A stretch of DNA of 48,580 nt from Minisyncoccota bacterium (GCA_043718505.1 JAYSVN010000029.1:1-48580); one strand, 5' to 3'. Numbered from the stretch's first letter, positions 7,149 to 47,918 are shown. Notes: a model not told the origin generated them from the letters alone. Numbers and translations: made by a program.

Positions 7149-7490
7149 TTATTTATCGCCAAAAGCTTTATTGAGAATCCAATTTAAAATTGAAATAATG
7201 AGAGCTCCCCATATTGCAGCAGTAATACTATCCACAGTAAATCCGGCAACAAGTGTCGCCACAAACCAGAGTATCACTCCGTTTATAACCAGAGAAAAAA
7301 GTCCGAGCGTAATAATATTTATAGGCAAAGTGAGTAGCGTGACAATAGGCTTTACAACAGTATTTATAAAACCAAGAATAGCCGCCACGAGAATTGCCGC
7401 CAAAAAGCCACTCACATGAATGCCACTCACAATATATGGAGTCGCAAGGACGGCAAGTGTCAATATTAACCAATGAACGATGATTTTCAT
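7149..7490 (-). CDS. small membrane protein, YvlD/DUF360 (holin-superfamily-IV-like)
   Basis: 113 aa with 3-4 TM helices and the MKIIVHWLILTLAVLATPYIVSGIH start typical of DUF360. Confidence 0.6.
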   Translation of the reverse strand: MKIIVHWLILTLAVLATPYIVSGIHVSGFLAAILVAAILGFINTVVKPIVTLLTLPINIITLGLFSLVINGVILWFVATLVAGFTVDSITAAIWGALIISILNWILNKAFGDK

Positions 7491-7503: not shown

Positions 7504-7953
7504 TTAAAAAAGTGATTCGACGACTTCCTTAACTAACATGCCATCAGCTTTGCCTTTCAGGTCTTTCATAAGAGTTCCCGTAAGCTGGCCGGCCTTGCTT
7601 TTGTCAGTAACATTGAGCTCTTCTTTTTTTACCCTGGCCAGAATTTCAATTTCTTCGCGATCCATCATTTTTGGTAAAAAAGTTTCGATAACAGCAAGCT
7701 GAGCTTCTTCTTCGGCCGCCAAATCTTCACGGCCGCCAGTTCTATATTGAGAAATAGAATCCCGGCGCTGCTTGGCCAGACGCATCATAACAGTTTGAGC
7801 TTCATCATCAGCGAGCGTATCCTGTGGAGTTTTACCTTTAGCAACCAATTCATTTGTAAAAGCGCTCGACATGCCGCGCAAAGTATCAAGACGAACAGAA
7901 TCCTTGGCTTTCATGGCTTCTTTTATGCCTTCTTTGATTTTATCCTGTATCAT
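7504..7953 (-). CDS. GatB/YqeY domain protein
   Basis: 149 aa with the YqeY-like pattern (KAKDSVRLDTLR ... ARVKKEELNVTDKSKAGQL). Confidence 0.75.
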   Translation of the reverse strand: MIQDKIKEGIKEAMKAKDSVRLDTLRGMSSAFTNELVAKGKTPQDTLADDEAQTVMMRLAKQRRDSISQYRTGGREDLAAEEEAQLAVIETFLPKMMDREEIEILARVKKEELNVTDKSKAGQLTGTLMKDLKGKADGMLVKEVVESLF

Positions 7954-24544: not shown

Positions 24545-24647
24545 TTTTTATTTTTATATCATTATTTTTTTATACATTATTTAGGAGTAACAATAGCATA
24601 ATAATTTTCATTGTCAAAGAAGAGGCTTTTTGCTAGGATTGGCCTAC

Positions 24648-25892
24648 ATGACACGCATACTTTCAATTGAAACTTCATGCGACGAAACTGCGCTTTCTGT
24701 AATCGATGCAGACGGCGGCACACTCTCGCCGAAGTTCACGGTGCTCGGTAACGCACTCGCAACTCAAGCCGAACTCCATGCACAATATGGCGGCGTTTTT
24801 CCTATGGTAGCAAAACGCGAGCATGGCAAAGTTATTACTGAACTTCTCGGTCGCGTTCTGACTGAGGCCAATGTTTTATCTTTGGGTGAAATAAGTGCGG
24901 TGCGGCGCAAGGAGGCACTTGCCGAGCTTCACCGCGAACTTGAGGCTAAAGAAAATCTGGCTTTCTTTTTTGAAAAATATGGCGTACCGAATATTGATCT
25001 TATTTGTGTGACATCAGGTCCGGGGCTTGAACCTGCACTTTGGGTTGGTATTAGTTTTGCCAAAGCGCTTTCTATTGCCTGGCAAAAACCGATTATGCCA
25101 GTTAATCACATGGAGGGACACATTGCTTCTATTCTTTTACAGAAGGATGGGGAGAAAAAAACGGACAATCAGCTGACTATCAAAAATGAAATTCCCCATT
25201 ACAAAATACCGACAATACACTTCCCGGCTATTGCTCTTCTGGTTTCAGGCGGACATACAGAAATTCATGAAGTAAAGGCTTGGAATAAGTACAGGTTGCT
25301 CGGTGCAACAAAAGATGATGCCGTTGGTGAAGCTTTTGATAAAACAGCCAGACTGCTTGGTTTACCCTATCCTGGTGGTCCGAAGATTTCTGCTTTGGCA
25401 AAAGAGGCACGTGACAATAATGAGACAGGCGCAAGTGTTGGCCAAAAAATTGAACTGCCTCGCCCGATGATTCATTCGCATGATTTTAACTTTTCTTTTT
25501 CAGGACTTAAGACTGCTGTGCTTTACCTTACGCGAGATATCGGCGAGAAGAAAATGGATGACAAAACCAAACGCATTATTGCCCGAGAATTTGAAGATGC
25601 GGCGATTGAAGTTATCGTCAAAAAAACTATTTTGGCCGCTGAACAAATTGGCGCTGAAAGTATTATTGTTGGCGGCGGTGTCGCGGCTAATAAGCGTCTG
25701 CGCGAAGTATTGACTGATGAAGCTAAAAAGAAATTAGGCGATATTGAAGTATTTTTTCCCGAGAGAGATCTGGCGACAGATAATTCAATTATGATTGCTA
25801 TGGCCGGCTACTTTACATATTTAAAAAATAACAAGCGCGGTTTTGATATTAAAAAAATTAAAGCTAAAGGTAATTTAAAAATTGAGCAATAA
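24648..25892 (+). CDS. tsaD: tRNA N6-adenosine threonylcarbamoyltransferase TsaD (Kae1/YgjD family)
   Basis: ILSIETSCDETA, the HMEGH metal site and GGVAAN. I chose the Met at 24648; the track ORF starts 18 nt earlier. Confidence 0.88.
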   Translation: MTRILSIETSCDETALSVIDADGGTLSPKFTVLGNALATQAELHAQYGGVFPMVAKREHGKVITELLGRVLTEANVLSLGEISAVRRKEALAELHRELEAKENLAFFFEKYGVPNIDLICVTSGPGLEPALWVGISFAKALSIAWQKPIMPVNHMEGHIASILLQKDGEKKTDNQLTIKNEIPHYKIPTIHFPAIALLVSGGHTEIHEVKAWNKYRLLGATKDDAVGEAFDKTARLLGLPYPGGPKISALAKEARDNNETGASVGQKIELPRPMIHSHDFNFSFSGLKTAVLYLTRDIGEKKMDDKTKRIIAREFEDAAIEVIVKKTILAAEQIGAESIIVGGGVAANKRLREVLTDEAKKKLGDIEVFFPERDLATDNSIMIAMAGYFTYLKNNKRGFDIKKIKAKGNLKIEQ

Positions 25893-29887: not shown

Positions 29888-29934
29888 TACCGGTTTTGTA
29901 AAAATGCTTTCAAAATGTATAGTTAGGGCCATGC

Positions 29935-30016
29935 CGTGGTGGCGAAATTGGCAGACGCACTACGTTCAGGTCGTAGCGAGAGCAATCTCGTGGGAGTTCA
30001 AGTCTCCCCCACGGCA
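29935..30016 (+). tRNA. tRNA-Leu (anticodon CAG)
   Basis: Acceptor GCCGTGG/CCACGGC, anticodon stem CTACG/CGTAG with loop TTCAGGT, long variable arm, T-arm GGGAG-TTCAAGT-CTCCC. Confidence 0.85.
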
Positions 30017-30023
30017 CATAGTT

Positions 30024-32639: not shown

Positions 32640-32641
32640 TG

Positions 32642-32815
32642 TGGGCAATTGAGGAATCGAACCTCACTCCGAGAAATAATACTTCCCGTTCGGCTAAAGC
32701 CGACCACGCTGCCCGTAACCCCGCCGAAGCGGGGCTCGAGCGTTGCGCCGCAATAATATTGAAGCGTTGAGCTCTTGACCTACGTCGTCTTACGACGACA
32801 TTGCAGGCCCGTTTG
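32642..32815 (-). ncRNA. unassigned structured RNA element with a tRNA-like 3' end (T-arm and acceptor 3' strand) and GNRA/UUCG-capped hairpins
   Basis: On the minus strand the segment ends ...TGAGG-TTCGATT-CCTCA-ATTGCCC-A, a canonical T-arm plus 3' acceptor strand. It is preceded by the hairpins CGTCGTC-GTAA-GACGACG, CCCCGC-TTCG-GCGGGG and TCGGC-TTTA-GCCGA. I could not find a proper 5' acceptor strand, D-arm or a sensible anticodon. The boundaries are approximate. Confidence 0.35.
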
Positions 32816-33863: not shown

Positions 33864-34469
33864 ATGCCGAGATTAGACCAGAAATTATATCCTCAAATAA
33901 AAGCTCTTTACGAGAGTGGTTTTCCAATGACTAGAATTGCTAAGCATTACAACGTAACACTTGATACTGTTACATATGCCATGAGAAAGGGTAAAATTCC
34001 TCGTAGAAATATGAAAGAGGTACAAGCACTTAGGTTTAAACAAAAAATTCCATCATTCACAATCAACAAACCCAAGACGCAGGCTGAAAAAAATATCATT
34101 ACTACGGGTGTAGCTTTATATTGGGCTGAAGGCTATAAAACAAACAGGGCCAAAGGTATAGATTTTGCAAATAGTGATCCATCAATGATTTTGGTATTTA
34201 TGAAATTTCTTCGTACCTGTTATGAATTAGATGAAAGTCGATTGAGGGCCTCATTGTATGCCTATAGTGACCAAAACATTAATGAGCTTACAGATTATTG
34301 GAGTAATGTAACTGCTATTCAGAAATCACAGTTCATAAAGCCATATATTCGGACTGATTTTAAAATATATGGCAGAAAAATGAAGTACGGCCTTGTTCAT
34401 GTTCGATATAATGACAAAAAGCTACTTTTTGATATAATGGGGCGCATCGAGGTTTTGAGACGAGAATAA
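33864..34469 (+). CDS. HTH + LAGLIDADG-like (homing-endonuclease-like) protein, paralog B
   Basis: N-terminal HTH (ESGFPMTRIAKHYNVTLDTVTYAMRKGK), the motif LYWAEGYK, NSDP...YW.N, and a KYGLVHVRYNDKKL block. It aligns with ORF 3642-4328 along the whole core. Its stop codon is 1 nt before tRNA-Tyr. Confidence 0.6.
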   Translation: MPRLDQKLYPQIKALYESGFPMTRIAKHYNVTLDTVTYAMRKGKIPRRNMKEVQALRFKQKIPSFTINKPKTQAEKNIITTGVALYWAEGYKTNRAKGIDFANSDPSMILVFMKFLRTCYELDESRLRASLYAYSDQNINELTDYWSNVTAIQKSQFIKPYIRTDFKIYGRKMKYGLVHVRYNDKKLLFDIMGRIEVLRRE

Positions 34470-41561: not shown

Positions 41562-41633
41562 GGCCACGTAGCCAAGTGGTAAGGCAGTTCTCTGCAAAAG
41601 AACTATACGCCGGTTCGATTCCGACCGTGGCCT
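41562..41633 (+). tRNA. tRNA-Cys (anticodon GCA)
   Basis: Acceptor GGCCACG/CGTGGCC, anticodon stem GTTCT/AGAAC with loop CTGCAAA. The T-arm has one mismatch and the T-loop is TTCGATT. Confidence 0.75.
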
Positions 41634-41637
41634 CATT

Positions 41638-41719
41638 GCCCGAGTGATGAAATTGGTAGACATAGTCGACTTAAAATCGGCGGCCGTAAGGCATGTGGGT
41701 TCGATTCCCACCTCGGGCA
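41638..41719 (+). tRNA. tRNA-Leu (anticodon TAA)
   Basis: Acceptor GCCCGAG/CTCGGGC, anticodon loop CTTAAAA, long variable arm, T-arm GTGGG-TTCGATT-CCCAC. Confidence 0.85.
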
Positions 41720-41839
41720 CGAGTAATGTTCTAGAACAGTATTCATTGCAAACGCCATTGCAATAAGTAATTTTTAATTTATAATTTCTTTATTGTTTCT
41801 TAATATTATTCCGATTAAGAAATATTCGTAAAATAATAC

Positions 41840-41912
41840 GCGCCCATAGCTCAGTTGGTAGAGCAACTCCCTCTTAAGGAGATGGTCGCAGGTTCGAATC
41901 CTGCTGGGCGCA
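41840..41912 (+). tRNA. tRNA-Lys (anticodon CTT)
   Basis: Acceptor GCGCCCA/TGGGCGC, D-arm GCTCAGTTGGTAGAGC, anticodon loop CTCTTAA, T-arm GCAGG-TTCGAAT-CCTGC. Confidence 0.85.
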
Positions 41913-41946
41913 CAGTGAGTAAGCAGTTGCATACCACTTTATATAA

Positions 41947-42031
41947 GCCGGAGTGGCGAAATTGGCTAGACGCAACTGCCTTAGGAGCAGTCGGGAGCAA
42001 TCCTGTGGAGGTTCAAGTCCTCTCTCCGGCA
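41947..42031 (+). tRNA. tRNA-Leu (anticodon TAG)
   Basis: Acceptor GCCGGAG/CTCCGGC, anticodon stem ACTGC/GCAGT with loop CTTAGGA, long variable arm, T-arm GGAGG-TTCAAGT-CCTCT. Confidence 0.85.
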
Positions 42032-42085
42032 CAAAATTTTTATCTATAATTTTAGTAATAGACGCAGCATCAAAGCGTATGTCAC

Positions 42086-42139: not shown

Positions 42140-43216
42140 ATGGAAAGTAACACAGTTTGGGACTGGGTTCTTAATATAGGAACAGTCATAGGATTTCTGC
42201 TTTTGCTCTTCTTCTTATGTGCACACTTTGATATTTTCTTCGCTGGTTCAGCCAGAGAAAATAGAGCGGTATTTGTCATGAAAGGAAGTAGAAAAGGTGG
42301 TCAGTATGTACGCACTATCCTGGTATCTAAGGAAAATAGTATTAAGGATAATGGTGAAGTGGGGTACGACACAGGCGGGAGTAAGCCGTTTACAATTTTA
42401 GGTAGACCATATCTTGGTTTGCCTTTTGTCCATTTTCTTGATGAACAGAAAATGGTGTGGGAGCAATTCAACGAAGAGGATAACAAGACTGACTACCGAG
42501 ACGAGGACACAAAATATCTTTTTATTAGTCAGACTAACTATGCGGTAACAGTAAGGGATGCTGAAGACAAAGAAAATTTTCCTATTGATTTAGTTATGGG
42601 TGTTATTGCCTATCCGGTTAATGCCTATACAGCAAGATTTGGTGTTACCGATTGGCAAAAGCAGTTTCGTGATCTCATAACACAATCGGTGAATAATGTT
42701 GTTGGCGAATTTACTTTCAATGATTTGAAAAGTGAAATTGATGATCTAGCTAAAACTAGTTTTGGTCAAAGAGTCATGGACGATCTTGAGCGTCTTGAAA
42801 CTGGTAAAAAGTTTTCTGATCTTACTGGTCATGAAATCGTGCGCATCGCAATTAGAAAGATCGACCCGGATGATTCGCGAAAGGAAAACCGTGAAGCTTT
42901 ATCTGCCAAATCTCTTGCCAAACTTAAGGCCGAAGGTGTTATTGAAGAAGCAAAGGGTCTCGCCCAAGCTGAAGTTGAAAAAGCAAAGGGCTCTGCTGAA
43001 GCAAGAGGAATTAAAGCTAATGCAGAAGCTAATGCAACTGTTGTTGAAGGAAATGCTAAGGTTGAGGTTGCAGGAAAAATGTATGCCGTTGAAGCTAAGG
43101 ATGAAAAAACAGTTAGCGTTGCCAGGTCCAAGGCCATTGAGAACCACAAAGGTACTTTGGCTTACGGGGTGAACGCATCAGTCCTTTTACAAGAAGAAAA
43201 GGAGGCAAAACCATGA
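42140..43216 (+). CDS. SPFH/band-7 (flotillin-like) membrane protein with an Ala/Glu/Lys-rich coiled-coil C-terminus
   Basis: N-terminal TM helix, then a band-7-like core (...VRIAIRKIDPDD...), then the flotillin-type repeat EAKGLAQAEVEKAKGSAEARGIKANAEANA. Confidence 0.6.
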   Translation: MESNTVWDWVLNIGTVIGFLLLLFFLCAHFDIFFAGSARENRAVFVMKGSRKGGQYVRTILVSKENSIKDNGEVGYDTGGSKPFTILGRPYLGLPFVHFLDEQKMVWEQFNEEDNKTDYRDEDTKYLFISQTNYAVTVRDAEDKENFPIDLVMGVIAYPVNAYTARFGVTDWQKQFRDLITQSVNNVVGEFTFNDLKSEIDDLAKTSFGQRVMDDLERLETGKKFSDLTGHEIVRIAIRKIDPDDSRKENREALSAKSLAKLKAEGVIEEAKGLAQAEVEKAKGSAEARGIKANAEANATVVEGNAKVEVAGKMYAVEAKDEKTVSVARSKAIENHKGTLAYGVNASVLLQEEKEAKP

Positions 43217-43659
43217 AGCTCTGGTATATTCTTTTACCGATGTGCATTCTATTATTCACTGTGATGTTTTTTGTGCAGAATTCAGGAAAACTTGGTACTG
43301 TCAAAACTGCCGCAGGCAAAGTCATTACCAAATGGAAAATAAAACCTCCATCATGGCAAAATATCAAGAGAATTCTAACTTTGCTTGTAATTGCTTTCTT
43401 TATCTGGCAATGGTGGCCGAAAAAGCAGTATCAAACATTGTACTTCAAAAAAGGTCAGGATTACAAAACAGTTTATCTTGATCTGCGACCCTTTCATTGG
43501 GAAGTGCAGGGTGGTGTTCTTTGCGGTTTTAATGGTAAGGGAGAACGTATGAGACTAGGCGACTGGTATCAGAACTTCTACGGTCCCGAATACAGAGTAA
43601 TGAAACTCAAGGTTGAGTCCGGGGATGATGTTGTTATGACGCTTACGTACAAAGATTGA
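43213..43659 (+). CDS. small membrane protein co-transcribed with the SPFH gene (148 aa)
   Basis: Its start overlaps the SPFH stop (ATGA). Two TM helices and a Trp-rich segment. It is not obviously NfeD-like. Confidence 0.5.
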   Translation: MKLWYILLPMCILLFTVMFFVQNSGKLGTVKTAAGKVITKWKIKPPSWQNIKRILTLLVIAFFIWQWWPKKQYQTLYFKKGQDYKTVYLDLRPFHWEVQGGVLCGFNGKGERMRLGDWYQNFYGPEYRVMKLKVESGDDVVMTLTYKD

Positions 43660-43688: not shown

Positions 43689-43727
43689 AAAACGCTCCGA
43701 GTTGTACACTCGAAGCGTTTTTTATTT
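43689..43727. terminator. bidirectional rho-independent terminator
   Basis: Nested hairpin AAACGCT-CCGAGT-tgtaca-CTCGA-AGCGTTT followed by TTTTT. It also terminates the convergent pilin operon. Confidence 0.75.
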
Positions 43728-43748: not shown

Positions 43749-44069
43749 CTAGAATGGCGATTCGCAATTATCTGCACCCGATAGGCCCCATGAGCCGCAG
43801 ACAAGATTAATTATCCCGCCAGCGGCAATCATGATGAACATGCCAATGATCCCCCACATTATGTGTTTTCCACCGGTCGCCCGGGCGTCACTGCTTTCGC
43901 TGTCTTTGATGAATTCAAAAACACCGTACAGAAACACAATTAGAGCTACCGCAAAACCGAGCTTAATAGCCGGATTCAAGATAATCACTTCAACTTTTAT
44001 AATGAATTTCTTGAGTGGCGTTAAATCTGCTGCGGCTTGGGCAATATGAGGCATCCAGAAATTAAACAT
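43749..44069 (-). CDS. pilin-like small membrane protein P5 (T4SS-pilin/TrbC-VirB2-like), N-terminally degenerate
   Basis: Core GFAVALIVFLYGVFEFIKDSESSDARATGGKHIMWGIIGMFIMIAAGGIINLV is homologous to P3/P4. C-terminal Cys pair (C...C). There is no signal peptide, only the relic AQAAAD of a cleavage-site region, and no SD; it starts 9 nt after the P4 stop. Confidence 0.45.
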   Translation of the reverse strand: MFNFWMPHIAQAAADLTPLKKFIIKVEVIILNPAIKLGFAVALIVFLYGVFEFIKDSESSDARATGGKHIMWGIIGMFIMIAAGGIINLVCGSWGLSGADNCESPF

Positions 44070-44078
44070 AGGAGGAAA

Positions 44079-44462
44079 CTAGATACAGACTGAACCGTTG
44101 ATGATTGTACCCGGAGCTACGCCTGGAGGACATGGCAAGCTTGAAGCACCTGTGCCAGGACCAACACCTGTAGTATTGGCAATGAACTTTACAAGGCCCC
44201 AAACAGCGACGATAGCGAAAAGTCCGACAACACCCCAGATCATCATTTGGCGACCCTTTGCCTTTGCTTCTTCATCACCTGCAATAACGTATCTCACGAT
44301 ACCCCAGATAAACATAAGCATAGCAATAGCGACCAAAAGAGTCGTAAGCTTGCCGACAAGCGTCGAGCCGGTATCGAGAAGGGTTCCTGCATTTGCGGCT
44401 TGAGCTAGTGCCAAACCTGGAAACAAGAATACAGAGAGAAATAATACTGCTAATTTTTTCAT
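44079..44462 (-). CDS. pilin-like secreted membrane protein P4 (T4SS-pilin/TrbC-VirB2-like)
   Basis: Signal peptide with ALA-QA, two hydrophobic helices separated by a short charged loop (FIWGIVRYVIAGDEEAKAKGRQMMIWGVVGLFAIVAVWGLVKFI), and a C-terminal Cys pair LPCPPGVAPGTIINGSVCI. Confidence 0.6.
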   Translation of the reverse strand: MKKLAVLFLSVFLFPGLALAQAANAGTLLDTGSTLVGKLTTLLVAIAMLMFIWGIVRYVIAGDEEAKAKGRQMMIWGVVGLFAIVAVWGLVKFIANTTGVGPGTGASSLPCPPGVAPGTIINGSVCI

Positions 44463-44531
44463 AATTTTTTCTTAAACTTCTATTCGACCGTTATTTATTA
44501 ATATTTGTAGCGGTAAACCGCCGACAAAAGC

Positions 44532-44559
44532 ATTATACCACTCCAGCTCCTTTGTCTAA
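44532..44559 (-). promoter_or_regulatory. extended -10 promoter (TTAGAC-N16-TGGTATAAT) upstream of pilin P4
   Basis: Read on the minus strand: -35 at 44554-44559, TG at 44539-44540, -10 at 44532-44537. It lies about 70 nt upstream of the P4 ATG. Confidence 0.45.
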
Positions 44560-44586
44560 TGGGTAAATAGTGGAAAAGGGATTGTA

Positions 44587-45105
44587 TTATTCCGGAAATT
44601 GTGGTGGAAATTCAGTATTGATTTCAAAGGTATTTGAGATAATGGCAACCAGCCCCCAAACCGCAACCATGACAAAAAGGCCGATAACACCATAGACCAT
44701 AAATGATCTGCCACGCTCTCTGTCCTCGGAGCCGTCCGGTGAAATAACATATCTAACTACTCCCCAGATGAATACAAGCATTGCTATTGAAAAAAGAAGC
44801 GGCATCAGGGAGTTTGAAATCGTACAAGTGATATAGTCAAAGATTTGAGGAATATCACCAAAATTCTTTGGGCAAGAAACAGTGTTTGATGTCTGGGTTG
44901 TAGCCGGATTTTGATTGGCTAAAGTTTGAAAATCGTAAATATTGCCGCTATCATCTACAGAACCGCCATCTCGTGTTCCGGATGTGTCTCCAAATGTTCC
45001 GCGTATAGGCTGCGCAAAAGTCAATGTCGGTAATGAAAACGCGGCCAATAGTAAGATAACGAAGACTTTTTGCAGGATTTTATAATTACTTAAGATTTTT
45101 TTCAT
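44587..45105 (-). CDS. pilin-like secreted membrane protein P3 (T4SS-pilin/TrbC-VirB2-like)
   Basis: Signal peptide, an N-terminal Cys pair (SCPKNFGDIPQIFDYITC), and the core FIWGVVRYVISPDGSEDRERGRSFMVYGVIGLFVMVAVWGLVAII, about 65% identical to P4. Confidence 0.6.
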   Translation of the reverse strand: MKKILSNYKILQKVFVILLLAAFSLPTLTFAQPIRGTFGDTSGTRDGGSVDDSGNIYDFQTLANQNPATTQTSNTVSCPKNFGDIPQIFDYITCTISNSLMPLLFSIAMLVFIWGVVRYVISPDGSEDRERGRSFMVYGVIGLFVMVAVWGLVAIISNTFEINTEFPPQFPE

Positions 45106-45132
45106 ATTATTTTTATATCATTACACTTATTA

Positions 45133-45570
45133 TTACATGAGACTATTTACCGTGCCCTGAATAGCGTCGGCTATAACTTTGGCACCCAGAATAATAATTG
45201 CTCCGATGACAACGTAGAGTAATGTTTCTTTGGCCTTGGTAATTTTGGTTTCATTTCCTCTGGCTGTGGCAAATAGATAGCCGGCATATATGATCATGAC
45301 TGCCACGATCGGCGTAGCGATTATTCGGACAATTTCTAGAAGTGCAACGATAAGATCAGGCAAATTATCGAAACTACGAACTGGGTTCGGAATACTGAAA
45401 ACAAAAGAAGACGAGTCCCCCGTACTAGGCACACATGCCCCAGATGTCGGATCTATTGTTCCTCCTGTACATTGGCTGGGATCTCCGTGACCTGTTCCGT
45501 GTACTATAAAAGGTGTCACAGTGAGTAAGGTGCAAATTGAGAGAAGGCAGAATAAAAGAGTTTTTTTCAT
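45133..45570 (-). CDS. pilin-like secreted membrane protein P2 (T4SS-pilin/TrbC-VirB2-like)
   Basis: Start reset to MKKTLLF (45568-45570); the track ORF extends into P1. Signal peptide, Cys pair QCTGGTIDPTSGAC, helices PIVAVMIIYAGYLFATARG ... LLYVVIGAIIILGAKVI. Confidence 0.6.
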   Translation of the reverse strand: MKKTLLFCLLSICTLLTVTPFIVHGTGHGDPSQCTGGTIDPTSGACVPSTGDSSSFVFSIPNPVRSFDNLPDLIVALLEIVRIIATPIVAVMIIYAGYLFATARGNETKITKAKETLLYVVIGAIIILGAKVIADAIQGTVNSLM

Positions 45571-45589
45571 TGGCTTTAGTATATAGCAA

Positions 45590-46003
45590 TTAAGGAGTGA
45601 TGACTGGGGAAAACGTCGGTTCATTGTATCCAAGTGTCTTGAGAATAATACCGACAATTACCCAGGCGGCTAAGCAGAAAAAGATACCGATTAGAAGTTT
45701 CCTAAACATTTTATTGGCATCAGTACGTTTACCTGGATTGTCACCGCTTGTCATATAGAGAAATCCTCCGTATATGAATATAACAACTGCAATCGGCAAT
45801 ACCATGTACTTCAATATAAACTCTATAACACCACTAATGAGTGCCATGAGTTCAGTAAAGCCGCAGGGACTTTCCGGCGTACCTTCACATGGTATGAGCG
45901 AGTCGGCTCGTGCCGTCTGTACTAAAGAAAAAAACATGAAGGTGCTTAGCCAAAAATATTTTTGTATTTGTTTTTTTACTTTGCTAAAAAAATGTAATTT
46001 CAT
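45590..46003 (-). CDS. pilin-like secreted membrane protein P1 (T4SS-pilin/TrbC-VirB2-like)
   Basis: Signal peptide, PCEGTPESPCG Cys pair, then PIAVVIFIYGGFLYMTSGDNPGKRTDANKMFRKLLIGIFFCLAAWVIVGIIL. This is the P-C-x-C plus two-helix layout I associate with CPR/Gram-positive T4SS pilins. Confidence 0.6.
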   Translation of the reverse strand: MKLHFFSKVKKQIQKYFWLSTFMFFSLVQTARADSLIPCEGTPESPCGFTELMALISGVIEFILKYMVLPIAVVIFIYGGFLYMTSGDNPGKRTDANKMFRKLLIGIFFCLAAWVIVGIILKTLGYNEPTFSPVITP

Positions 46004-46017
46004 GTATTGATGTTTTT

Positions 46018-47343
46018 CTATTGCTCACTGGTAAGATAAGCATTAATTTTTGAGCTCGCAGTGTTAAGTGCTCCTGTTGAGTTGGATTTACCTGACTGTA
46101 TATCACTTACCATAGCCTGAAAAACACTATCGGTAAAACTGGTATTTGGATCAATCCAGGCTTTGGAAATAAGGGCTGATTGATAGAGGAGTGGATAGTA
46201 TGTATTTGTCGGATCGTTCGGTACCATGTCCCGACGAACAGGGGCAACGGTATAGCCTGTTTTTGAAAGCGTACTGAGTAAGGTCGCTGCTTTCAACGGT
46301 ACAGTCATATCTTTGGCGACATAGTACGCCAGGCCGGTATTTTTACTTTGTTTGGAAATAGCTACGCCGTAGAGTTGTCCTACAGTAGATTTTGTACCGT
46401 TAGCATTGGCTTGGGGTATAGGAGCAATATCAAAATTTAAGTTAGGATTTGTCCGACGCAAACTTGAAAGTTCACTACCCAGGCCGACGTAGTATGCCAA
46501 GTCACCTGAGAGAAAACGATCCCGATCACTTGAAAATGTTTTGTTCCAGGAATAAATTGTTCGGTTTGATGGATTGGCAAACTGAGTATAATAGTCGAGC
46601 GCAACCGAAGCCGCACTTTGCGTTGATGTTCCTTGCGTTCCCAAATCAAGCACTAATTTCCCATTTCCATTCACATGCATGATCGGATCTCCTGCCTGCA
46701 AAAAGAGGAGTGAAAGAATTTCTTTGGCATGACGAATATTGGTGTATTCACCGAGCGCTACTGCACTGCGCGTAATATTAAAATCATTACTGACAATTGA
46801 TATTTTTTTGGCCAGTTCAGGAAATTCCTTCCATTCCTTTGGCGCTGTCGCAATTCCGACGCTGGCAAAAATATCTTTATTCCAGAAGCCAACCAGCGGA
46901 TCAACAAAAAGTGGCTGAGCCAAAACTCCGGTCTGCGTAAGATAGGTATTGGCTATATCCATATATGTTAACGTATAGGTCGTGACCGGATAACTGGCAT
47001 AAGGAATTTCATACATTTTGTCTCTCTGTCGCCAGAAAATGTCAGGCGTAACCATAAAGAGGTCCGGGCCAGTACCCGAGGCAAAAGCTTCAACTAAATC
47101 ACTTTCATATGTAGCCGGGTTTTTTTGAACATAAATAATGCTAAATGTTTGATTTTGAACTGTGGTTTCGGCAATAAACTGGCTCATTGACTGCAAGTCC
47201 ATTGTGCCCCACATAAATACGGTTCCGGTTGGCGTTGTGACTTTTGATGAACCGAGTTTAACGTAGCCGCCAAATACTGCCACTCCGAAGAGAATGAAAA
47301 AACCGAAAACAAAAAGGACAATTGTTTGAAAGCTCAACTTCAT
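46018..47343 (-). CDS. extracellular solute-binding protein (ABC transporter SBP family-1-like) with an N-terminal TM anchor
   Basis: N-terminal TM helix, then TVFMWGTMD...ESDLVEAFASGTGPDLFMVTPDIFW...EIPYAS matching the SBP_bac_1 N-lobe. No permease or ATPase genes are adjacent in this window. Confidence 0.5.
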   Translation of the reverse strand: MKLSFQTIVLFVFGFFILFGVAVFGGYVKLGSSKVTTPTGTVFMWGTMDLQSMSQFIAETTVQNQTFSIIYVQKNPATYESDLVEAFASGTGPDLFMVTPDIFWRQRDKMYEIPYASYPVTTYTLTYMDIANTYLTQTGVLAQPLFVDPLVGFWNKDIFASVGIATAPKEWKEFPELAKKISIVSNDFNITRSAVALGEYTNIRHAKEILSLLFLQAGDPIMHVNGNGKLVLDLGTQGTSTQSAASVALDYYTQFANPSNRTIYSWNKTFSSDRDRFLSGDLAYYVGLGSELSSLRRTNPNLNFDIAPIPQANANGTKSTVGQLYGVAISKQSKNTGLAYYVAKDMTVPLKAATLLSTLSKTGYTVAPVRRDMVPNDPTNTYYPLLYQSALISKAWIDPNTSFTDSVFQAMVSDIQSGKSNSTGALNTASSKINAYLTSEQ

Positions 47344-47918
47344 GACAATGTAAAAATTATACCATAGTGGTGCGCGCCGGCTTCGAAGTTTTTTACTTTT
47401 TTGAAACCATTAGAAACTAAAAGACTTTCGGCATTCGCAGATGTAATGACGTGATCAGGCGCCGGGCCCATACCGCCAAATGATTCGCTCCAATCAATAA
47501 GCAGGACTTTACCGGAAGTCTTGAGTATGCGCTTTACTTCATCAAGAAAACCCTTTCGATCTTCAACCTGAAAAAGGACATTTGAAATAATGGCGCAGTC
47601 TACAGTTTGGTCGTGAATTTTGGTACCGCCTTTTTTTTCTATATTGCCCCAAATATAATCAATATTAGTGAGGTGCTCTTTTTTGGCCGCGTCCTGAATA
47701 TGCTGAAGTAAGTCTCGCTGAACTTCAATGCAGTAGACTTTTCCGTCTCCGCCATTAATTTTTTTAGCTGCGGCAATCGTATAAAAACCACTACCGGCGC
47801 CGAGATCAGCGATCACGAGGTTTGTGGTGAGTTCTAATTGGTCTAAATTATTGGAAGGATCTGCGAACATAGTTTTTATTGTATCAGTTAGTTTATTAAA
47901 TGTGTGATTCTCGAGCAC
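47340..47918 (-). CDS. class I SAM-dependent methyltransferase
   Basis: Motif I VIADLGAGSGFYT, then the CIEVQ and LLIDW acidic post-I/II positions. Confidence 0.8.
   Translation of the reverse strand: MLENHTFNKLTDTIKTMFADPSNNLDQLELTTNLVIADLGAGSGFYTIAAAKKINGGDGKVYCIEVQRDLLQHIQDAAKKEHLTNIDYIWGNIEKKGGTKIHDQTVDCAIISNVLFQVEDRKGFLDEVKRILKTSGKVLLIDWSESFGGMGPAPDHVITSANAESLLVSNGFKKVKNFEAGAHHYGIIFTLS

Follow-up and report, generated by a model that had tools for sequence, protein, structure and literature searches.

We analysed a 48,580-nt stretch of DNA (hereafter, the window) from a Minisyncoccota bacterium (GCA_043718505.1, JAYSVN010000029.1:1-48580), which contains, between positions 43,749 and 46,003, a tandem array of five small genes related to those encoding pilins of type IV secretion systems (T4SSs). 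The genes, designated P1 to P5 in the order of their presumed transcription, are located on the minus strand and lie directly downstream of two genes encoding a methyltransferase and a solute-binding-fold protein (SBP). An earlier inspection of this DNA, made from the sequence alone (referred to below as the sequence-only reading), had reported five minus-strand genes whose products form a helical hairpin, and all five open reading frames (ORFs) were found in our analysis; the same five genes were also predicted independently on a public contig of 6.5 kb with identical sequence. The host is a Parcubacteria-type Patescibacterium. As judged from sequence comparison with its relatives, the array is an old, ordered and conserved operon, and not a variable or decaying set of genes. 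The features of the locus are listed in Table 1.

Table 1. Features of the pilin-like gene array and its surroundings (positions within the window; aa, amino acids; SAM, S-adenosylmethionine; TM, transmembrane; N-tail and C-tail, segments before and after the hairpin)
Feature	Position	Strand	Description
Methyltransferase	47340-47918	(-)	192 aa; SAM-dependent enzyme of class I; opens the conserved module; Pfam Methyltransf_31/11/25 and UbiE-like matches
SBP-side box	47356-47364	(-)	promoter-like sequence TGGTATAAT (extended -10 type); lies within the 3' end of the methyltransferase gene and precedes the SBP start codon by 12 nt
SBP	46018-47343	(-)	membrane-anchored solute-binding-fold protein, 441 aa, MalE/oligosaccharide-like; TM helix at residues 5-24
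P1	45590-46003	(-)	137 aa; signal peptide, N-tail, 2-TM hairpin; PF18895, 43.7 bits
P2	45133-45570	(-)	145 aa from MKKT; PF18895, 37.7 bits; longest ORF extends to 45657 via TTG
P3	44587-45105	(-)	172 aa; long, low-complexity, length-variable N-tail; PF18895, 37.8 bits
P3-P4 gap box	44532-44540	(-)	internal copy of TGGTATAAT, likewise resembling an extended -10 promoter; gap of 124 nt
Leader element	44507-44525	(-)	GTCGGCGG-loop-CCGCTAC; hairpin of 5-6 bp close to the presumed start of the P4-P5 mRNA
P4	44079-44462	(-)	127 aa; short N-tail, hairpin, C-tail; PF18895, 45.6 bits (best of the five)
P5	43749-44069	(-)	106 aa, without signal peptide; PF18895, 25.9 bits
Terminator	43689-43721	(-)	strong, intrinsic; 14-bp stem and T run, 28 nt after the P5 stop codon

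Hydropathy analysis revealed in each of the five predicted proteins a pair of strongly hydrophobic stretches with a short charged loop between them. P1-P4 additionally have a hydrophobic segment at the N-terminus that resembles a signal peptide, so the signal peptide ascribed to all five paralogs holds for these four; P5 has no such segment, as the sequence-only reading had itself remarked. All five proteins match the family PF18895 (T4SS_pilin) in hmmscan, with E-values from 7e-12 to 1e-5, well beyond a chance resemblance. The gathering cutoff of this family (26.6 bits) is exceeded by P1-P4, and P5 falls 0.7 bit short of it (25.9 bits, E 1e-5). In the annotation of the 6.5-kb contig the identical proteins also carry PF18895, with P5 flagged 'weak'. 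BLAST comparison places P5 together with the other four paralogs in one family. P2 additionally passes the threshold of the TrbC/VirB2 family PF04956 (30.6 bits; cutoff, 27.9 bits) and matches DUF6112 (24.5 bits); P1 (14.6 bits) and P5 (11.3 bits) remain below the PF04956 cutoff, and P3 and P4 have no match to it. The proteins also align with nearly the full 80-residue model NF045849 of NCBIfam, which describes the Mbov_0395 pilin-like conjugal transfer protein (E 2e-7 to 4e-4; 4.6e-6 for P5), and since their scores (19.9-30.4 bits) all lie below its cutoff of 40 bits, they are relatives, not members, of this group. On the basis of these profile matches, the five genes are members of the VirB2/TrbC-related pilin family PF18895, which supports the proposed TrbC/VirB2-type affiliation for P1-P4, and for P5 to within 0.7 bit. 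Over the hairpin core of 64 residues, the most similar paralogs (P3 and P4) share 58% identity, and not about 65%, as had been estimated; the value for all other pairs is 19-33%. No sixth copy was detected in the window with hmmsearch and the orthogroup models.

One genome per species was scanned with an alignment of the P4 family. This yielded 73 loci, spanning Nomura-, Kaiser-, Wolfe-, Lloyd-, Campbell- and Zambryskii-bacteria as well as other Paceibacterota, and orthogroup hidden Markov models were then run on all of the ORFs. The order methyltransferase, SBP, array was found in 54 loci, with median gaps of only 3 nt both between the methyltransferase and SBP genes and between the latter and the first pilin gene. 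Individual look-ups of P4 homologs gave the same picture, i.e. gyrA, the methyltransferase gene and the SBP gene (~445 aa), followed by five small, size-matched genes; when the look-up started from SBP homologs of only 37-43% identity, the array was found downstream in five cases out of five. Complete arrays contain 3-7 genes (mode 5), and the order P1, P2, P3/P4, P5 is kept in 48 of 50 (P1 is the first gene in 40 and P5 the last in 41). The differences in copy number result from duplications of the middle, P3/P4 class. Among close relatives the number is constant at five, and each of these relatives carries one-to-one orthologs of all five paralogs. The identity to orthologs amounts to 46-66% for P1-P4 (P3, with 46-62%, being the least conserved), 65-71% for P5, 59-64% for the SBP and 67-74% for the methyltransferase. 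Relative protein identity was used in preference to dN/dS, because with orthologs 46-74% identical the synonymous sites would be saturated.

These data bear directly on a view that starts from the sequence-only reading, in which the array may be an accessory repertoire and P5 a copy in decay; the interchangeable pilus subunits would then evolve fast and vary with respect to antigenicity or host range. Such a view would agree with the 19-33% identity within the array, with the variable N-tails of P2 and P3, with the duplication of the P3/P4 class in some lineages and with the suggestion, made in the discussion of a survey of Patescibacteria, that the versatility of paralogs may help these bacteria to adapt to different host strains (PMC12102498). 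It is contradicted by the presence of the same module downstream of gyrA in about 60 loci from many lineages of Parcubacteria, by one-to-one orthologs with 46-71% identity (as against 59-64% for the SBP of the relatives concerned), and by the fixed order and position of the genes. The flanks are those of a core genome, and P5 is the most conserved paralog; copy number does not vary among close relatives. We therefore consider this explanation largely refuted and very improbable. A phage or mobile origin was also considered, and was dropped after a scan of viral contigs for relatives of P4 found none.

In some lineages the gene in the P1 or P2 position encodes a much larger protein (270-613 aa), composed of a large N-terminal ectodomain fused to a C-terminal pilin module. 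Examples are found in the loci L017 (7547-8707), L040 (8004-9185), L053 (8329-9840) and L043 (7628-9469), and also in L060, L061, L066, L071, L072 and L074. In the L053 protein (503 aa), the only example scanned, Pfam recognizes the pilin part alone. The P3 ortholog of L006 (9244-9915) carries (L/M)PDGT-type repeats in its N-tail. Many of the module-bearing metagenome-assembled genomes (L011, L012, L016, L021 and others) are titled 'uncultured Candidatus Saccharibacteria bacterium' in third-party annotation records, which indicates either an unreliable label or the occurrence of the module beyond Parcubacteria.

The last gene of the array merits separate treatment. P5, without a signal peptide and a ribosome-binding site, had been suggested to be a decaying copy, but it is the best conserved of the five paralogs, is present in every close relative and belongs to an old class of proteins without signal peptides: the corresponding segment is missing in 51 of 54 P5-class proteins. 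The start of the first TM helix (TM1) bears the motif (I/L)(I/L)NP(I/L)I in 48 of the 54. About half of the class begins with a mini-leader of 7-16 residues ending in A-x-A, and the remaining proteins begin at the amphipathic segment that follows. P5 of the window is of the former type, with the mini-leader MFNFWMPHIAQA, the amphipathic segment, the NP motif where TM1 begins and, in the C-tail, a Cys pair. The claim that P5 has no ribosome-binding site is correct in so far as no Shine-Dalgarno (SD) sequence precedes the gene; this is uninformative with respect to P5, since an SD-like motif is present in only 2 of the 45 genes of the window, the other 43 being equally without one.

We also inspected the cysteine residues, of which exactly one pair per protein had been reported. 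This is true of the extramembrane parts; P1 contains a third Cys (C110, also conserved) in its second TM helix (TM2), and P2 two further ones in the signal peptide. Conservation of the pairs among orthologs was found for (i) P1, with the N-tail motif LIPCxGxxxxPCGF, (ii) P3, whose N-tail ends in VSCxxxF...DYxTC in orthologs of 166-223 aa, (iii) P4, with the C-terminal PC(P/A)PG...C, a pair that P0002-P0008 and P0011-P0014 retain at a spacing of 3-14 intervening residues, and (iv) P5, with (V/I)CG...C-NPF in the C-tail. The N-tail pair of P2 (C34, C46) was found only in this genome, and a Cys pair in every copy is thus not supported as a conserved rule. At least two Cys are present in the N-tail of 43 out of 50 P1-class proteins. 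Among 370 family members of the related loci, 211 have no Cys in the tails; the others contain mostly even numbers (2 in 85 proteins, 4 in 14 and 6 in 7, as against 1 in 46 and 3 in 4), and this predominance fits the formation of disulfides.

The sequence-only reading had explained the position of the Cys pairs, before the hairpin in P1-P3 and after it in P4 and P5, by a circular rearrangement between paralogs. This does not hold, as the hairpin cores of the paralogs align colinearly and local alignments of the N-tail and C-tail Cys segments are no better than those of 500 shuffles (z from -1.2 to +0.2). Another explanation is offered by the predicted topology. In 347 proteins the density of lysine plus arginine is 0.225 in the loops (median length 13 residues, with three basic residues), as against 0.057 and 0.044 in the tails; from this confinement of the basic residues to the loops, an extracytoplasmic location is predicted for both tails. 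A Cys loop placed either before or after the hairpin would then lie at the same outer end of the subunit. In the solved conjugative pili, too, both pilin termini are located at the same end of the hairpin. The Cys loops thus look like independent elaborations of two neighbouring termini and not like the products of permutation.

The SBP encoded upstream of P1 is confirmed as an orphan membrane-anchored solute-binding protein, and its start codon overlaps the stop codon of the methyltransferase gene (ATGA). The copy in the window gave no SBP match in hmmscan, and its homologs, which number at least 610 in Patescibacteria, carry PF13416/PF01547 and are named extracellular solute-binding proteins. 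Comparison of the family profile with the PDB matched 476 sequences in all, including a sugar SBP (4r9f, E 1e-19). The AlphaFold2 model has a mean predicted local distance difference test (pLDDT) score of 92.4, and Foldseek aligned it with sugar and oligosaccharide SBPs (E ~1e-21, TM-scores 0.65-0.8). According to both the profile and the model, the 441-aa protein has a type II periplasmic-binding-protein fold related to that of sugar SBPs. Genes for ABC permeases or ATPases were found neither in the window nor in the Pfam-annotated flanks of 10 related contigs. The methyltransferase has only generic, sub-threshold matches in NCBIfam and was assigned to no specific family. In the literature searched, we found no report of an association between an SBP and a VirB2 array.

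The arrangement of putative expression signals divides the array. The two TGGTATAAT boxes listed in Table 1 are the only ones on the minus strand between positions 43600 and 48000. That in the P3-P4 gap has a counterpart (TGnTATAAT) at the equivalent place in all eight close orthologous loci, and a larger gap, typically of 80-350 nt, precedes the P4-like gene in most arrays. The same box upstream of the SBP gene, 17-33 nt before its start, is found in 8 of 55 related loci, six of which are close relatives. We infer from their sequence that both boxes may serve as promoters. The stem of the terminator also folds on the opposite strand and is shared with the convergent plus-strand gene 43213-43659, so this terminator is probably bidirectional. 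The boxes, the gap and the terminator point to two nested transcription units, SBP-P1-P2-P3(-P4-P5) and P4-P5, in which case P4 and P5 would be expressed more strongly than the other subunits. This agrees with the proposal that P1-P3, which are tightly packed, are co-transcribed and that P4-P5 have an extended -10 promoter of their own.

The hairpin of the leader element has an invariant stem and a variable loop, with zero covariation in the alignment and RNAalifold analysis of 8 loci. It is limited to close relatives, with equivalent sites in L002, L005, L006 and L008-L011. Because an invariant stem provides no covariation, we do not claim a structured regulatory RNA; a role such as mRNA stabilization may be inferred at most.

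The array is of a kind that is already known, i.e. a patescibacterial VirB2-like pilin array, since such arrays have been published for Patescibacteria as two or more tandem PF18895/PF04956 genes, located in the chromosome and showing low identity between paralogs (Wang 2023; Quinonero-Coronel 2025). The survey mentioned above recorded VirB4 in 2,417 of 3,035 patescibacterial assemblies and VirB2-like proteins (PF18895, PF04956) in 1,948, of which 1,135 have them near virB4; in 383 assemblies it described 441 arrays of 2-11 pilin genes, which are 25% identical on average and 54% at most (PMC12102498). The identities measured here (19-33%, with one core pair at 58%) are comparable. An MPF_FATA ancestry has been published for patescibacterial VirB4. 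In Southlakia epibionticum ML1, six pilin genes (SEML1_0014-0019) form part of a T4SS cluster, and each of them is essential according to transposon sequencing (PMC10633639). Their products carry PF18895 with or without PF04956 and PF19607, and the array has been highlighted in a review as a possible pilus in a monoderm. The present array shares with those of ML1 and TM7x (the 'Sec-secreted array') and with the 441 arrays of the survey the phylum, the Pfam signature and the divergent tandem paralogs, and it is likewise chromosomal, with no relaxase nearby. It differs from the ML1 array, which lies inside the T4SS cluster, directly after a VirB6-like gene and with no SBP. Here the array follows the methyltransferase and SBP genes, and no T4SS gene was found over a distance of 43 kb to one side, nor over 10 kb to the other side as covered by orthologous contigs. 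Its architecture is distinct in the separation from virB4, in the operon shared with genes for a methyltransferase and a sugar-type SBP, and in the ordered classes of paralogs, the last of which lacks a signal peptide. Neither this order of paralog classes nor the terminal class without signal peptide was found described in the literature searched.

Taking these results together, and by analogy with the related systems, we lean, though with no more than moderate confidence, towards the interpretation that P1-P5 are five non-redundant subunits of a T4SS-type surface filament or conduit. A pilus function is suggested by the family membership and by the ML1 precedent. P1-P4 would be exported via Sec signal peptides and P5 would insert without a canonical one, and all five would be oriented with the loop inside and both tails outside. 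The Cys pairs, which P1 and P3 carry in the N-tail and P4 and P5 in the C-tail, could then form disulfide-stapled loops that all lie at one and the same extracytoplasmic end of the hairpin. On the model of VirB2/TraA and of the six-pilin array of S. epibionticum, a patescibacterial T4SS encoded elsewhere (VirB4, VirB6 and partners) would extract the subunits from the membrane for assembly into a filament or conduit at the cell surface that serves the epibiotic lifestyle. As suggested by their own conserved, presumably strong promoter and short tails, P4 and P5 are probably the major subunits. P1-P3, co-expressed with the SBP and having longer and more variable ectodomains, are likely to be minor, initiating or contact subunits. 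The SBP could act in ligand capture, sensing or adhesion, with the methyltransferase as a further co-operonic partner.

Several observations weigh against this interpretation. Homologs of VirB4, VirD4, VirB3, VirB6 and VirB8 were not found in the 48.6-kb window, as had been noted for the VirB4 and VirD4 ATPases. When the inspection was extended to 82 related loci (1.2 Mb), phmmer searches with VirB4, PrgJ, PcfC, VirB3, VirB6, VirB8 and PrgH/I/K/L gave nothing, and a VirB11 query matched only PilB-type ATPases. As no machinery homolog was found nearby, the link between the array and a T4SS is based on the family name and on analogy. The similarity to genuine VirB2 is weak: when the family profiles of P2 and P4 were compared by hhalign with an alignment of seven alphaproteobacterial VirB2/TrbC proteins, built from plasmid records, the pairwise E-values were 0.014 and 0.007, respectively, and the probabilities 3-6%, with P2 aligned in the correct TM1-loop-TM2 register. 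In a sequence search of the PDB, the P4 family profile matched designed helical channels and TraM of pKM101 (E 0.083), and that of P2 had no match. The AlphaFold2 model of P4 (pLDDT 75.5) consists of two helices (residues 25-60 and 64-98) with a small beta hairpin in the C-tail; Foldseek retrieved for its hairpin only generic helical hairpins from the PDB, all with E >1, a result that is uninformative for a two-helix protein. To our knowledge, a filament has been shown for no Parcubacterium. Finally, gyrA adjoins the module in 59 loci, and inherited synteny may therefore explain part of the adjacency of its genes.

Some of these results would be expected if the Pfam name were misleading and the proteins were small envelope or membrane-organizing components having only a generic 2-TM hairpin in common with pilins: the similarity to bona fide VirB2 is weak, the top PDB matches are designed channels, and hairpins match many folds. 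We regard this as improbable, because P2 passes the curated TrbC/VirB2 threshold, all five proteins match the pilin-like model derived from an integrative and conjugative element (ICE) over its full length, and members of the same family are located within the S. epibionticum T4SS cluster and are essential together with it.

The conservation of gyrA raises another question, namely whether the array is a T4SS pilin set and the methyltransferase and SBP genes are unrelated housekeeping genes, kept adjacent by synteny downstream of gyrA. A Lactamase_B_3 gene is also kept upstream (48 loci), and both the generic nature of the methyltransferase and the lack of an SBP in the S. epibionticum cluster are in line with this explanation. 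The spacing of the genes argues the other way, as the members of the module are joined by 4-nt overlaps or gaps of about 3 nt, whereas the median distance between gyrA and the methyltransferase gene is 58 nt. Moreover, in two loci unrelated genes separate gyrA from the methyltransferase gene and the methyltransferase-SBP-array block is still contiguous, and downstream synteny decays while the module does not. Adjacency by synteny alone is thus a doubtful explanation, although one with an appreciable chance of being right. In the loci L091 (2889-7462) and L092 (5968-7420), the blocks of small genes between gyrA and the methyltransferase gene contain SET-domain, HIT and unannotated ORFs, and the module is intact.

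A further possibility is that the proteins never form a filament. The five hairpins, with their 10 TM helices, could form a hetero-oligomeric channel or translocon that acts with the SBP in a new type of SBP-dependent uptake of host glycans. The tight, conserved operon with a sugar-type SBP, the lack of ABC permease or ATPase genes in any fetched locus, the lack of nearby T4SS genes and the ordered, distinct subunits of near-fixed number speak for such a channel. The relationship of the proteins to TrbC/VirB2 and to the ICE pilin-like proteins speaks against it, as does the location of the family within a T4SS cluster in Saccharimonadia; in addition, the operon contains no energizing component, and other PF18895 loci of the same genomes are without an SBP. 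We therefore consider it unlikely. A broader proposal, that the methyltransferase, the MalE-like SBP and the ordered VirB2-like set constitute one apparatus, which captures or imports host-derived material by means of a heteromeric filament or channel derived from a T4SS pilus and functionally coupled to the SBP, seems to us speculative and similarly unlikely. On this proposal, the P5 class without signal peptides and the mode of five different subunits would point to a defined hetero-oligomer in place of one major pilin with spares; the number five is suggestive in view of the solved conjugative pili, which are built as five-start or C5 assemblies.

The other PF18895 genes occur in the same metagenome-assembled genomes at two further conserved housekeeping sites (L041, L058, L059, L064, L070; L047, L068). 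The first has the order dnaA-dnaN-PBP1-aaRS-RuvC-YebC-[2-3 pilin-like genes]-RuvB-PilB-type ATPase-TsaE-PolA, and the second PhoD-like-[1 pilin-like gene]-DnaG-RpoD-UvrD-DsbA-like-BacA. Inspection of these loci for VirB4 revealed the housekeeping contexts instead, and the SBP is also absent there.

Returning to a T4SS-type filament or conduit with five subunits, several known systems may be compared with it. The TrbC/VirB2/TraA pilins (PF04956) have a similar layout, in which a signal peptide is followed by two hydrophobic helices that flank a short basic loop, and include P2 by score; however, they are usually encoded by a single gene beside virB3 and virB4. The present array differs from them also in its monoderm host, in the Cys-loop tails and in showing no sign of cyclization or acetylation. 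The NF045849 protein of Mycoplasma ICEs is a pilin-like protein of a monoderm, and its alignment with all five paralogs is consistent with MPF_FATA ancestry, but its gene is located on a mobile element and is present there singly. In Bartonella and Anaplasma, virB2-like genes have been amplified in tandem (an analogy cited in PMC12102498). These arrays are thought to serve antigenic or host-surface variation, whereas the paralogs described here are old, ordered and individually conserved. Enterococcal PrgZ/TraC provides an example of an orphan SBP encoded on a T4SS-bearing element, with no transporter of its own beside it (the annotation of pCF10 includes a 'peptide pheromone-binding protein TraC'). 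PrgZ/TraC is an OppA-type peptide binder, whereas the SBP of the window is of the MalE/oligosaccharide type and appears translationally coupled to pilin-like genes, and any functional parallel is putative. In archaea, the Ced DNA-import pili (with CedA1, a VirB2-like pilin) are filaments formed in cells without an outer membrane, which serve import and not export. They belong to a different domain of life, and their likeness to the present system is a descriptive one.

In Patescibacteria, the T4SS and its pilin arrays are essential in the one species tested. The locus described here shows that in the large branch of the Parcubacteria the pilin-like genes are old, ordered and distinct, and are located away from secretion genes, in an apparent operon with SBP and methyltransferase genes. 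This corrects the idea of such arrays as simply variable repertoires. The locus also provides handles for addressing (i) the identity of the major subunit, (ii) the cooperation of an SBP with a filament in uptake or host recognition and (iii) the insertion of pilins without signal peptides.

The remaining part of the window contains housekeeping genes, encoding ClpB, an IscS-like protein, IF-2, DnaK, GrpE, GlmS, RelA/SpoT, ParB, MiaA, TsaD, DinB, Obg and the C-terminus of GyrA. ARAGORN predicted ten tRNA genes, eight of which (including a cluster at 41562-42032) were confirmed by Rfam, which detected only tRNAs in the window. The other two calls, tRNA-Leu(cag) at 29933-30017 and tRNA-Asn(att) at 32641-32714, overlap ORFs and are probably false positives. 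A TGnTATAAT or TATAAT box is located 6-20 nt before many start codons of the window (e.g. those at 33864, 33242 and 8030 on the plus strand and at 7953 and 47343 on the minus strand). Together with the scarcity of SD-like motifs, this sequence pattern suggests leaderless mRNAs or mRNAs with very short leaders. The TsaD homolog (24630-25892, 420 aa) has its best TsaD stretch at residues 195-390 and may contain an extra N-terminal region of about 190 aa; a 412-aa TsaD is also encoded in L081. Two further genes lie amid the housekeeping ones: that at 7149-7490 encodes a member of the Phage_holin_4_2 family (E 2e-31), and the product of that at 535-1395 contains a Bestrophin-like domain.

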